A stretch of 27,352 nucleotides of DNA from Patescibacteria group bacterium (GCA_038063355.1 JBBTVH010000090.1:1-27352), one strand, 5' to 3'; shown: positions 1-24,800, counted from the stretch's first letter. Numbers and translations: made by a program. The notes: generated by a model not told the origin, from the sequence alone.

Positions 1-584
1 GCAAGATCAATCGCTCGCTTGATTGCAGCAATCTCCGATTCTGGCGGCCGATTTTTTGAATGGGTGGAGATATCCCGTAATTCCGAATTCCGAATTCCGA
101 ATTCCGAATTTATTTCCGCATCTTCACAATGTGCTACCAATGGGATACCCAACTCTCCACACACCTTAAATGCTTCTTGAATGGTCTCTTGATCGGCACC
201 TTGGTTACCTGTGGAGTGGTCAAAATATACTTTCAAGCCGCAGCATCGTTTTTTTAAATGCCGCAATGCGGGAGATGAACTGCGCCAAATATCTCTTAGT
301 GCAAGAAGATGATGTTTCTCTGTTGCTCCCATAAAGAATCGGATGTCGCAATTCCGAATTCGGAATTCCGAATTCCGAATTCTCTCCGCTTTGCGTACTT
401 TATCCGCCAGTGCCTCCACTGTAACCGTTGCAGGGATGGTATTTGGCATCTCACAAACCGTCGTGACGCCTCCTGCTGCAGCTGCAGCGGATTCTGATGC
501 CATATCTGCCTTATGCGTGAGTCCCGGCTCGCGGAAGTGCACATGGCAGTCGATCAGGCCGGGGAAGATGATCGTATTGGGCAT
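1..584 (-). CDS. pyrC: Dihydroorotase (5' part; truncated by the left window edge; absent from the ORF track)
   Basis: Manual translation from ATG at 584: MPNTIIFPGLIDCHVHFREPGLTHKADMASESAAAAAGGVTTVCEMPNTIP...GLKVYF...PLVAHCED...RPPESE, open to position 1. It carries the HxH metal motif, GGVTTVxEMPNT and HCED typical of type I dihydroorotase. Its start overlaps the upstream stop (TGATG) and it lies downstream of pyrB. Confidence 0.93.
   Translation of the reverse strand, partial: MPNTIIFPGLIDCHVHFREPGLTHKADMASESAAAAAGGVTTVCEMPNTIPATVTVEALADKVRKAERIRNSEFRIRNCDIRFFMGATEKHHLLALRDIWRSSSPALRHLKKRCCGLKVYFDHSTGNQGADQETIQEAFKVCGELGIPLVAHCEDAEINSEFGIRNSELRDISTHSKNRPPESEIAAIKRAIDL
79..110. repeat. (AATTCCG)x4 + AATT heptamer tandem repeat inside pyrC
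   Basis: Four exact units at 79-106 plus a partial unit. Read in frame on the minus strand as INSEFGIRNSEL. Confidence 0.95.
350..381. repeat. AATTCCG heptamer repeat with one inverted unit inside pyrC
   Basis: AATTCCG AATTCGG AATTCCG AATTCCG AATT. Positions 351-366 (ATTCCGAATTCGGAAT) form a perfect palindrome. Encodes RIRNSEFRIRN. Confidence 0.95.
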
Positions 585-1318
585 CAGGGGAAGAAGAGAA
601 GTTTCATGGCTCCGACGAACATAATGCCATGTTGCAGATTCTCAAACATGGGAACACTGACATAGTGAAGAAGTTTTTTACCGATCCCGACGCTGAACAT
701 CATAAGCGGAAAAAGGAGGATGAGGGCGACGATAAGTTCATGGGACCAAACGATGTGCGGGGCATACGCAGCATTGCGCCCGAGATTCATCATTAGCGCC
801 ACCGCTGTCGATGTGCCGATGAATTCTTCTTTCCGAAGCCCCATGGAAAGCAATGCCGGAGCGCGGATGAGAGACCCATTTCCGACAATGCCTGCTATGA
901 CGCCATTAAAAGCACCTATCACCACGAGAGCCGGTCTTGAGGGCCGGAAGGCGAAGCGTTTCACATGCAAGAAGGGGAGATAAGGATGCAGGGCAAATAG
1001 CAGACATAACAAACCGATCACTATTTCGAGCAAGCGCGGGTACAACAGGAACAACAAGCCGCCGGCTATGAAACTCGTGGGAAGCCCGGGAAGCCCGTAC
1101 CACAAAGTAATATCCCACCGTATCTCGCCACAGAAGAAAAAAATCTTGGCAACTTGTATGGCAAACATTAGCAGCGCCGTGATTGCCAGGTTCTGTTGGA
1201 TGGGAAGAAAGAAACTTCCGAGAACAATCGTCACAATCCCGAGGCCGCCTCCGGCGATTGAGGAAAATACGCCACCCAGGAAGAGTATGGGGACGAAGAG
1301 AAGTAATGGAGGCATCAT
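584..1318 (-). CDS. TauE/SafE (TSUP) family membrane transporter
   Basis: 244 aa, about 8 hydrophobic segments with two-fold repeated glycine motifs (SSIAGGGLG; AGIVGNGSL...L...G...EEFIGTS) typical of TSUP proteins. ATGA overlap with the pyrB stop. Confidence 0.8.
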   Translation of the reverse strand: MMPPLLLFVPILFLGGVFSSIAGGGLGIVTIVLGSFFLPIQQNLAITALLMFAIQVAKIFFFCGEIRWDITLWYGLPGLPTSFIAGGLLFLLYPRLLEIVIGLLCLLFALHPYLPFLHVKRFAFRPSRPALVVIGAFNGVIAGIVGNGSLIRAPALLSMGLRKEEFIGTSTAVALMMNLGRNAAYAPHIVWSHELIVALILLFPLMMFSVGIGKKLLHYVSVPMFENLQHGIMFVGAMKLLFFP

Positions 1319-21825: not shown

Positions 21826-21892
21826 TTTGGATATGTCATTTTCCTCTTTGTTGAGGCAGAGGTAAAGGAGATTGCCCGTCCGCCGTGATGTC

Positions 21893-24800
21893 TTAGGCGA
21901 CCATATGCTCCGCGATGGCATCCTCTACTTTCTTCTCCAAAATCGTCGAGGTGGTCACGGTGAGCGGCAAGCCGATTGTCTGTGCGCCGATTTTAAGCTG
22001 CACCTTTTCGCTGCCGGGGAACATCTCGAGGACGCGCTTGAGATCAAGCAGCAGTTTCTTCGGCGCGCGCTCGGGGAGGTCGATGGTGTAGATCCTGATT
22101 GGGGAGTTGGAGGCTGCTTCCTTTACCACAGAGGATTGTTTGTTGGTTTGCTGGTTTGTTGGTTTGCTGGTTGTCGATGTCATTGTAGATCCGGAACCGG
22201 ATGCATCGATCAGTCCCAAAACTGCGAGCTCTTTATCCGTCGGCATACCCTGGAGAATCCACTTGCCGATGGGGCCGAAGAAATCATCTGTGCCATTTTC
22301 TACCACTGTATTTTCGAGTGTCACGACTTCACCGGCGATGACGTTGCCCTCTTCATCCACCACTTCGATGGCTTCTGCTTCTACCTGCGGCCGCACCAGC
22401 CGGATGCCCTGCTTGGCCTCATCCTCATCGAAGAATCCCGCCTCTTTCGCTTTAGTGATCATTGTCGTTATGGAGGCGCGTTTTACGGCGTCTACGCGCA
22501 TCTGGAGCACCCCAGCGCGCACATCCAGAATACCCGCAACTACCAAAACAGTATCAGGCTGCTCCAGAAACGCCGCGGCATCGGCAAACGTACGTGGGAA
22601 GAGTGTTACTTCGATTTTCCCCGTGGGGTCCTCCAAAAACACGATTGCCATCGTCTCGCCTTTCTTCGTAGTGATGCGCTTGACGCCGCCGACGATGCCG
22701 GCGAGGGTGATCTTCTTTCCGGCGTCCTCCCGCGTGAGATTGGCGATGAGCTGCGCCTTCTTACTGATGTATTTCTTCAAACCCGCGAGCGGATGGCTGC
22801 TTACATACATGCCGAGCGTTTCCTTTTCCCATTGTAGTGCTTGCTGCCGGGAGGCGGGCGCTGTCTTGGGGAAGGAGATCCGTGCCTCCTCGATGTTCGC
22901 CGCTCCGAAGAGATCCCCTTGGGAATGGCTCACGCCTCCGGCTGCCTTGGCGTAGTCGACGATCAGATTGTAGTGCTCCACAAGCGTTCCGCGTTCCCCA
23001 AGGGAATCGAGCGCTCCGGATTTGGCGAGCGATTCGAGAAGCTTTTTATTGAGCGCCTTCGTAGGAACACGGCGCGCAAAATCATCCAGACTTTCGAATT
23101 TCTTCTCTCCTCGCGCGGCGATTATCTGCTCCACGGAACTATTGCCGATTCCTTTCACCGCCGAAAGCCCGAAGCGGATGGAGCCGGGAGTGGTGGATGG
23201 TGAATGGTGAGTGGTGAGTGGTGAGCGGGGAGATTGGGAGTCGGAAAGAATCGCGGTGAAGTGCCGCAGGGATTCGTTGATATCGGGTGGAAGCACGGCG
23301 ATACCCATTGCGCGGCATTCCTCGATCTCGATCATCACGCGGTCTGTATCGGCGGCGTCACTACTAAGAAGCGCAGCCATGAACTCCGTCGGGTAGTTCG
23401 CCTTTAAGTACGCGGTCTCGTAGGCGATCTTGGCGTACCCCGCGGCGTGGGACTTGTTGAAGCCGTATCCGGCAAAGGGGGTCACGACATCATCAAAAAT
23501 TTGCTCGGCGAGTTGCCGCTTGTATCCCTTGTTTACGGAGCCTACAAGAAACTTCTCGCGCTGGGAAGAGAGCTCCTCTTTGATCTTCTTTCCGATGGCG
23601 CGGCGCAGAATATCCGCTTCGCCCAAACTGAACCCGGCAAATGTGCGGGCGATCTCCAGAATCTGCTCCTGGTACACACCGATGCCGTAGGTGGGCTCAA
23701 GAATCGTACGAAGATCTTTGTGGAGGTAGCGGATGTCTTCCTGACCGTGCTTGCGTTTGATGTACTGGGGGATCCAATCCATCGGGCCCGGGCGATACAG
23801 GGCCACCATCGCGACGATGTCATTGAATGCGGTCGGTTTGAGCTGCTTGAGATACCGACGCATGCCAGCAGATTCCAACTGGAACACTCCGGTCGTATCG
23901 CCACGCTGCAGCAGCCCAAACGCCCCTGGGTCGTTTCCCGGGATTTTGGTGATATCAATACGGTTCCCCGACAGGCGCTCAATAATCTCCAGCGTCGTCT
24001 GGATGACCGTGAGGTTCATGAGTCCTAGGAAGTCCATCTTCAGAAGACCGAGGGACTCGAGCGGCTTTGCCGCGGTCTGCGTGATGATGATGTTTTCATC
24101 CTTGGGGGCGCGCTGGAGCGCCGTGTAATGCACTGCGGGTTCGGGCGTGATGATCACGCCGCACGCGTGCACCGAAACGTGACGTGCTTTGCCCTCAAGC
24201 TTCCTAGCTGCGTCAAAAATACGGCGATAGATTTCGTTTTCCCGATAGACCGATTGTAATTCCTGCGTATTCAGAGCTTCCTCAAGCGTCGTTCCCGGAC
24301 GATCGGGGATGAGTTTCACGAGCGCGTTCATCTCCAGGAAGGGCACGCCGTACGCGCGGCCAACATCCTTCACTGCGGCACGCGCTGCGAGTGTTCCGAA
24401 CGTGCAAATCTGTACGACGTGGTCCTGGCCGTACTTTTCGCGGACGTATTCCAGCACTTCATCTCTGCGTGTATCGGCGAAGTCGATGTCCACGTCCGGC
24501 ATGGAGATGCGTTCAGGGTTCAAAAAGCGTTCGAAGAGGAGTCCGTGTTCCATCGGGTCCAAGCCTGTGATCCCGAGGCAATACGAGACAATCGACCCCG
24601 CGGCGCTGCCACGCCCCGGGCCCACAGTGATGCCGCGACGCTTCGCTTCGTTCACAAAATCCGCGACAATGAGGAAGTATCCGGAGAAGCCAACCTGCTC
24701 GATGATTTTGAGCTCATAATCCATCCGCTCCTGATGTTCCTGGGTGGGATTGGGATACTTCTTCGCAAATCCCTCCTCTGTTAGCCTGTGGAGCTCCTTA

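Follow-up and report, generated by a model that had tools for sequence, protein, structure and literature searches.

A stretch of 27,352 nucleotides, contig C90 of a metagenome-assembled genome (MAG) of Candidatus Peribacteria (Peregrinibacteria, candidate phyla radiation, CPR), carries short tandem arrays of 7-, 8- or 9-nt units inside four conserved genes, pyrC, tsaC, dnaE and dnaN; this whole stretch is referred to here as the window. The arrays are copies of genome-wide families of mini-elements and are located in protein-coding frame. Each element is about 31–35 nt long and consists of about 4.5 units of 7 nt, or, in some families, of units of 8 or 9 nt. To account for their distribution it is proposed, with moderate confidence, that families of dispersed elements are copied from locus to locus, with a preference for entering or overwriting resident elements, and that selection then filters the copies. 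The host is a tiny uncultured groundwater bacterium, and its MAG comprises 1.13 Mb in 210 contigs at 87% completeness. Its placement in Candidatus Peribacteria was derived from DnaE relatives, the closest of which is RIFCSPHIGHO2_01_FULL_55_13 (89% DnaE identity). Arrays were detected with Tandem Repeats Finder (TRF), the control being the genome shuffled in codon-sized triplets, and open reading frames (ORFs) were called by a crude rule under which approximately 90% of the genome is ORF. Comparisons within the genus used the genomes G001–G006, and in particular 314 kb of the relative G005, at approximately 87% nucleotide identity.

Six genic arrays were located at or close to the positions claimed in an earlier note on this DNA, which had described short-period repeats in pyrC (twice), tsaC, dnaE and dnaN and between genes. 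The host genes were recognized by Pfam as pyrC (dihydroorotase-like; 3–584, minus strand), dnaN (8279–9454), tsaC (20430–21053, minus) and dnaE (21893–25693, minus), and translation of all four ORFs is uninterrupted. The repeats in pyrC, tsaC and dnaE proved to be real by TRF, Pfam and open ORFs, as did the intergenic octamer arrays by TRF; for the dnaN 9-mer, presence was verified, but the run is degenerate and its period is trivially in frame. In pyrC, the array at 79–110 (site 2; minus strand, 32 nt, 4.6 units by TRF) belongs to the AATTCCG family, reads AATTCGG on the coding strand and encodes the peptide NSEFGIRNSEL. Comparison of orthologues indicates a loop equal in length to that of the relatives, so that the array substitutes for a same-length loop; the same codons hold GTTACGG x4 in G005, CACATTG x3 in G002, and in-frame perfect palindromes in G001, G003, G004 and G006. 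The plain ‘insertion’ of the earlier note is therefore too simple a description. The second AATTCCG-family array in pyrC (site 1, 350–382, minus; 33 nt, x4.7 by TRF) has one unit flipped, encodes RIRNSEFRIRN and exceeds the array-free orthologues of G001–G004 in length by exactly 21 nt (7 codons); the site is made of GAATTCA units in G005 and of GGAATGC units in G006. The AATTCCG family, which includes both pyrC arrays, has 22 arrays genome-wide, 20 of them genic.

The remaining genic copies occupy protein loops in a similar manner. TsaC residues 109–123 (SRSHDPTTHHSPSPT) are encoded by a CTCACGA/CTCACCA heptamer array (TGGTGAG-type; 20686–20727, minus, TRF). Among 57 relatives this loop is 0–20 aa longer than its minimal form and its periodic peptides differ, the closest relative having CCACCAT units. 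In an AlphaFold model of TsaC with a mean pLDDT (predicted local distance difference test) of 92.7, the sole low-confidence stretch is the block of residues 111–120 (mean pLDDT 48), within the array-encoded segment, in agreement with the earlier proposal that the repeats enter tolerant protein loops. DnaE contains two arrays detected by TRF on the minus strand. Loop 1, in the HhH (helix-hairpin-helix) domain, is encoded at 23188–23225 by a CTCACCA heptamer array (GAGTGGT x5.4; SPLTTHHSPSTTP), and the 85 profile positions of the Pfam HHH_6 match are spread over 104 aa; at this site the closest relative carries GCAAATG units, and a strain approximately 1% diverged (run X7) has several small deletions. 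The CTCACCA family, to which both this array and that of tsaC belong, is entirely genic. Loop 2, in the C-terminal linker, is encoded at 22138–22172 by an octamer array, AAACCAGC/AAACCAAC (reported by TRF as GTTTGCTG/GTTTGTTG x4.4), from a family of 13 arrays of which 12 are within ORFs and one is at an ORF edge; the closest relative carries a CAAATCG heptamer array there. In dnaN, a nonamer run, GGGNAGRAR (~8915–8959, plus strand, from sequence and translation), encodes GQKGEKGQEGEDGEK in a Lys/Glu-rich loop that is native to the whole family, and it scores under the TRF threshold. At the position matching window 8932, dnaN of G005 (L090) has an extra 30-nt in-frame insert (GPASAKASAG) that resembles a small GC-rich palindrome rather than a heptamer array. 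In alignments, the array-encoded peptides fall in variable loops.

The arrays are not assembly artefacts, because independent Logan contigs (k = 31; runs X1, X5 and X6) span them unchanged. A single X1 contig extends over 16342–27352 without a gap, and every array is likewise crossed, with 0 gaps, by contigs of X5 and X6, two runs of other studies; the possibility of artefacts raised in the earlier note is thus contradicted by contigs of three studies. No differences in unit number were found among the assembled contigs of three samples, in which rare variants are lost and low-frequency differences are possible.

Genome-wide, TRF returned 409, 167 and 207 arrays of period 7, 8 and 9, respectively, versus 14, 22 and 30 in the triplet-shuffled control, an excess over codon-shuffled sequence that sustains the earlier note on this point. 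The length of the heptamer arrays has a sharp mode at 31–33 nt (4.4–4.7 units), inside ORFs and between them alike, and approximately half of these arrays lie wholly within ORFs, essential genes included. The same mode recurs at loci of 80 other Peribacteria MAGs produced with different assemblers, with units specific to each genome. Arrays with a common unit also have common imperfections, and families range from 6 to 121 copies. In the largest, family A (AATTGAA units), 121 copies differ from one 30-nt core by no more than three substitutions; most of these carry a GG variant of unit 3, and the 5' edge is sharp, with A at -1 in 93%. Other families carry signatures of their own. Since internal variants are common to the copies of a family, the arrays derive from copying between loci and not from independent slippage. 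Only three matches to the family A core are present in the 314 kb of G005, other families having similar density in both genomes, which indicates a probable burst of family A in this lineage. The earlier idea of a process that spreads repeats from locus to locus is upheld by variants common to up to 121 copies and by such lineage-specific bursts. As a separate observation, the GG variant in unit 3 of family A removes the sole TGA of one sense frame, so that this frame is open through the element.

Three forms are found within the same families: solo arrays, as in pyrC, tsaC and dnaE; hairpins made of inverted pairs, as in two octamer elements of the window; and arms around genes of the S23p type, which are described below. 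Among 662 arrays of at least 20 nt and period 7–9, 320 are in inverted pairs. Inverted pairs number 168 and direct pairs 20; in 147 of the former the spacer is shorter than 80 nt, which makes them hairpins with tandem-repeat arms. In the window, the genic copies are direct tandem arrays of 32–42 nt with no 100–150 bp palindrome, and hairpins are found only among the intergenic copies. One of these hairpins (2236–2338; TRF span 2246–2336), with octamer-repeat arms of the AACAATTC family, lies between pyrB and a flippase-like gene; its RNA folds have energies of -31.6 and -33.2 kcal/mol (z -4.6 and -5.05), and its family is that of the arrays beside an S23p gene on C130. Another of the same octamer family (19588–19678; TRF span 19591–19676; fold z -4.2 and -3.3) is located between nrdR and aspS, with a CGCAAGCG motif adjoining its left arm. 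A further intergenic octamer array, CCGAATAG/CCGGATAT (25725–25760, by TRF and sequence), is positioned upstream of dnaE, and a Logan contig of X6 contains it too. In hairpin spacers across the genome, several unrelated families have, directly beside their arms, the motif CGCAAGCG (or CGCAAGTG), which is a GNRA-type tetraloop with closing C-G pairs (for example at 19620–19627 and 2269–2276); this recurrence hints at an RNA-level role. In the dnaN–mfd spacer (9432–9527) there is a GC-rich hairpin with the stem GGGGCAT...ATGCCCC. It is missing from G005, relative to which the window has insertions of 66 nt and 67 nt; in the X7 strain a 94-nt stretch is swapped for 28 other letters, and the X1 Logan contigs break exactly at this hairpin.

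Preservation of the reading frame was assessed by a flank-anchored comparison, in which the flanks of each array were anchored in G005 and the inter-anchor lengths compared. The length difference is a multiple of three at 58 of 67 genic sites versus 18 of 48 intergenic sites (p = 7e-8). The genic share also varies with the unit, being 6% for units with stops on both strands, 38% where one strand is stop-free and 72% where both are (e.g. AATTCCG and AAACCAGC). Net length changes are of 3, 6, 9, 21 or 24 nt, among others, with no fixed value, and many ORFs terminate on an AAT-TGA supplied by the element; dozens (e.g. on C141, C54 and C52) end in ...KIEN or ...MEN plus stop, the AAT-TGA coming from family A. 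As the modulo-3 excess is genic only, stop-bearing units are rarely genic and ORFs end on element-supplied stops, frame preservation is a survivorship filter and not a property of the inserted length, much as the earlier note had supposed in ascribing it to selection. No modulo-3 signal is present in array lengths taken from TRF coordinates (68/74/66), because array edges differ from insertion edges. Across relatives, loop length correlates with array density at rho 0.47 when the loop's own array is counted, which is circular; with the tsaC and dnaE arrays excluded, rho is 0.12 for TsaC (not significant), 0.21 for DnaE loop 1 (p = 0.10) and 0.34 for loop 2 (p = 0.005), which is weak support.

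Orthologous sites in G005 usually hold a different family or an entire different hairpin. At least 30 of the 67 genic sites have an array in both genomes, versus a chance co-occupancy of approximately 4% at G005 density, and 21 of these sites differ in family between the two genomes. At C158:767, the AATTCTC array of this genome faces an AATTCCG array in G005 with identical boundaries and length. Approximately 18 family A sites could be placed in G005: two are empty and approximately 16 hold another array or another hairpin, differing in both arms and spacer. Clean cases of filled versus empty sites exist, and the X7 strain already differs at DnaE loop 1 and at the intergenic hairpin 9432–9527. 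The presence of different families on the same sites points to a targeting or replacement mechanism that would operate without a known enzyme.

The elements are also associated with genes of the PF05635/TIGR02436 family (S23p, four-helix-bundle). The genome contains six such genes, each flanked by arrays and each by a different family (heptamer, octamer or nonamer); four of them (on C83, C50, C123 and C206) lie between the arms of an inverted pair, the remaining two being at contig ends. The expectation that four-helix-bundle genes would be enriched beside the repeats was thus borne out elsewhere in the genome, no S23p cassette being present within the window. Three window families match S23p arms, namely the dnaN nonamer (C50), the octamer hairpins (C130) and the CACCATC-like units (C206). 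Of 121 genomes of the class, 72 contain PF05635, in as many as 17 copies. Inverted arms scoring at least 12, mostly of period 7, accompany 24 of 30 S23p loci from 30 other genomes versus 0 of 29 shifted controls. Array density per 10 kb is 0–0.67 in seven S23p-negative genomes versus 0.67–2.33 in seven S23p-positive ones (60 kb sampled per genome, 20 kb for one; Mann-Whitney p = 0.001, related genomes not being independent). Similarity between S23p proteins is weakly correlated with similarity between their arms (r = 0.19, 1/2000 permutations). Two PDB homologues of S23p have five chains each, and the Xanthomonas homologue is described as a homopentamer (PMC4990558); PF05635 proteins resemble Avd, a pentameric accessory protein of diversity-generating retroelements (DGRs) (PMC10053308). 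In Coxiella, tandem GACAGAT heptamers in strain-variable number are found directly upstream of the S23p ORF of an intervening sequence (IVS) (PMC4990558). Two side observations concern the cassettes of other genomes in the class. In many of these (L139, L142, L143, L145, L154 and L168) the arms are GTAG/TAG-containing heptamers, which would halt translation in every frame of that strand and are reminiscent of the GTAG head found in repetitive extragenic palindromic (REP) elements. Some of the S23p matches in G106, G092, G047 and G053 have two to five in-frame TGA codons, which is consistent with TGA-recoded (Gracilibacteria-type) lineages carrying cassettes too.

According to the proposed account, copies would pass between loci by a non-homologous process that would repeatedly hit the same limited set of sites, often replacing the resident element. 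Purifying selection would remove genic copies that carry a stop or shift the frame, and the survivors in essential genes would be stop-free, in frame and in disordered surface loops. From this pattern we infer a mobile-element-like process behind the spread; that S23p is an element-encoded partner is speculative. A more specific version, in which arrays, hairpins and S23p cassettes would constitute an undescribed class of mobile element, is possible rather than likely. Here an Avd-like pentamer would recognize about five phased arm units, and exchange would occur at fixed landing pads, codon-phased sites in essential genes included, without a classical transposase or reverse transcriptase.

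Several findings weigh against copying by a mobile-element-like process. The 87%-complete genome has no RVT_1 match to a reverse transcriptase, and no transposase, integrase or reverse transcriptase tied to the elements was found in it. Neither a target-site duplication nor a target motif is present at the edges of 121 family A and 26 family D copies, where there are only purine-rich upstream flanks, and terminal inverted repeats are missing from the solo genic arrays. The link to S23p is a correlation in which the protein may be carried along without taking part, and the genomes behind it are related and thus not independent, 14 having been sampled for density. Between genomes, some arrays have kept both their position and their family, so turnover is not fast throughout, and a net gain of precisely three units is seen in pyrC at site 1, where empty orthologues have an A-rich proto-repeat, which fits local expansion as well. 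Gene calls also depend on the crude ORF rule.

Candidate enzymes and known element types were considered and rejected. The earlier note was correct that no candidate enzyme is visible in the window; its suggestion of template-directed addition, if by a reverse transcriptase, gains no support, RVT_1 being without a match in the 87%-complete genome, and DGR-type rewriting was rejected on the same ground. The genome has one strong Y1_Tnp match (C112:1418–1876), an IS200/IS605-type TnpA (NF033573, 124 bits); apart from a weak 19-nt octamer repeat approximately 900 nt upstream, no array is found within 1.5 kb of it, so the suggestion of a tyrosine transposase as neighbouring gene is not supported. 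A second, weak Y1_Tnp match is located at C196:808–954. No REP-associated tyrosine transposase (RAYT) was detected in the genome (REP_Tyr_transpos model 19.5 bits versus a cut-off of 80), and as the Y1 transposase is IS200-type, a reading in terms of RAYTs and REP doublet hairpins (REPINs) was rejected. For MITEs (miniature transposable elements with inverted repeats), the hairpin arms are indeed inverted, but there is no target-site duplication in the 121 family A copies, and solo arrays are without inverted ends.

Of the explanations that dispense with copying by an element, the most ordinary is independent local replication slippage at each site, whereby the arrays would be common long simple sequence repeats (SSRs), the polymerase favouring heptamers and selection retaining the arrays that are in frame. 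In many bacteria no class of long SSR is more common than heptamers, and slippage has been proposed as the cause, in the account of Mrazek 2007 as summarized in PMC4679880 and PMC4692102; pyrC site 1 is exactly three units above empty orthologues, and its units change in concert between relatives (GAATTCG, GAATTCA, GGAATGC). Slippage is nevertheless very unlikely, as it would have to yield one 30-nt sequence with the same variant unit at 121 loci, array lengths that are sharply peaked and not geometric, and swaps of whole hairpins, arms and spacer together, between relatives; in addition, copy number does not differ among contigs of three samples, and relatives mostly differ in length by 3, 6 or 9 nt and not by multiples of 7. 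Phase-variable contingency loci, in which changes in unit number switch genes, are known with heptanucleotide repeats in some bacteria, but the hosts here are essential housekeeping genes, all frames are open, the arrays are imperfect and unit number is again constant among those contigs, which makes this explanation extremely improbable. Collapsed or chimeric assembly of repeats might be suspected from a 31–33 nt mode near common k-mer sizes; its probability is negligible, as collapse would disrupt two frames in three but all are open, the arrays are identical in Logan assemblies made independently for three studies, and the same mode is found in MAGs from different assemblers. Pure local slippage, phase variation and assembly artefact are thus effectively excluded.

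Two other explanations come closer to the data. The arrays and hairpins could be functional cis-elements, either putative sites for a pentameric S23p on RNA or DNA or terminator or processing hairpins, which would co-evolve with a binding protein and of which the genic copies would be tolerated spill-over. Approximately 4.5 units correspond to five core motifs (e.g. five AATT boxes in 32 nt), matching S23p homologues that crystallize as five chains, or a homopentamer (PMC4990558); each of the six S23p genes has its own repeat family beside it, with a weak similarity correlation (r = 0.19), site occupancy is conserved while the sequence changes, and CGCAAGCG recurs beside the arms. On the other hand, the loops of essential genes have no obvious cis role, empty sites in a close relative show that many copies are dispensable, and the Coxiella S23p is seemingly not produced in vivo (PMC4990558); a cis-acting function is therefore judged unlikely. 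Stall-induced template switching would need no dedicated enzyme, the nascent strand in a repair-poor genome jumping to another array or hairpin and overwriting the resident element. It would explain replacement at the same boundaries and length (C158:767; pyrC site 2), resident elements as the commonest targets (~16 of 18 family A sites occupied in the relative) and the lack of target-site duplication. However, families with unrelated units replace each other, which leaves no guiding microhomology; clean de novo insertions occur at empty sites, and the S23p association is left unexplained. Template switching is therefore considered distinctly unlikely.

Published precedents cover parts of this phenomenon, but in the literature searched none covers the combination or the Peribacteria case. 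The Rickettsia palindromic elements (RPEs) reported by Ogata et al. in 2000 are said to be palindromes of 100–150 bp, in few families, that lie in frame inside conserved genes. Like RPEs, the present elements form dispersed families with copies in frame in conserved genes, add a peptide at the protein surface without loss of function and also occur between genes; unlike RPEs, their genic copies are approximately 32 nt long, non-palindromic and built of tandem 7–9-nt units, they comprise dozens of families per genome, and they replace each other at the same site. Heptamer repeats are otherwise described as short tandemly repeated repetitive (STRR) sequences in cyanobacteria, GGGNATC in Xanthomonas and Nostoc, and TAACTGA in Beggiatoaceae (PMC4692102, PMC4679880), and the stop content of the unit decides which orientation fits in genes (PMC4679880). 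The resemblance to such long simple sequence repeats (LSSRs), STRR and TAACTGA included, consists of tandem heptamers at many loci, head to tail as in LSSRs with their units of 1–11 nt, longer than chance and with some inverted pairs. The LSSR/STRR repeats, however, are mostly intergenic and variable in copy number, involve only one or a few units in any genome and have been explained by slippage or regulation, whereas the elements here have a fixed number of about 4.5 units, internal variants common to copies, approximately half of their heptamer arrays within ORFs and a link to S23p.

In scattered taxa, IVSs with different sequences are found at the same rRNA helices. The IVS of Coxiella, for example, occupies a conserved rRNA helix, helix 45 (PMC4990558). 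The S23p cassettes resemble the IVSs of Coxiella and Leptospira in that a PF05635/TIGR02436 ORF is bracketed by inverted repeats that form a stem (PMC4990558), but they are multi-copy (six here and as many as 17 in the class), and each arm is an entire tandem array of a kind that is also present in hundreds of copies without a gene. An IVS is inserted in helix 25 or 45 of 23S rRNA, from which RNase III cuts it out; no large-subunit (23S) rRNA gene is present in the 87%-complete assembly, and any location of the cassettes in rRNA is hypothetical. With REP elements and REPINs the elements have in common short repeats arranged as inverted hairpin doublets, hundreds of copies, persistent positions and lineage-specific families; REPs, though, are extragenic and not tandem-built, and this genome has no RAYT. 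The similarity to DGRs is limited to the Avd-like nature of PF05635 (PMC10053308) and to the rewriting of sequence at a fixed site, and here there is no reverse transcriptase, no template/variable repeat pair and no adenine-specific change. The Peribacteria genome paper makes no mention of these repeats, and the literature searched contains no description of the phenomenon for Peribacteria or Peregrinibacteria repeats, PF05635, TIGR02436 or S23p. Within that literature, the word ‘undescribed’ in the earlier note stands for the whole, and is qualified by the precedents for its parts.

As regards the remainder of the window, four ORFs (13927–16242, 16744–17856, 21059–21715 and 25762–27351, encoding 771, 370, 218 and 529+ aa, respectively) have no Pfam match at E<=0.001, and the sole Rfam match is a tRNA at 16285–16367 (57.5 bits).

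With approximately one short element per 2 kb, these families are a major, unpublished shaper of Peribacteria (CPR) genomes, and some of them are translated as part of the polymerase that replicates the genome, of the sliding clamp and of a tRNA-modification enzyme that is universal. Accordingly, many of the ‘lineage-specific loops’ of these proteins represent repeat debris and not adaptations. In annotation, the arrays introduce stop codons, break up alignments and exaggerate the variation in protein length in MAGs. The bracketing of S23p/Avd-like genes by the same elements offers a testable function for PF05635/TIGR02436, a family that has been without one since the 23S rRNA IVS was described.

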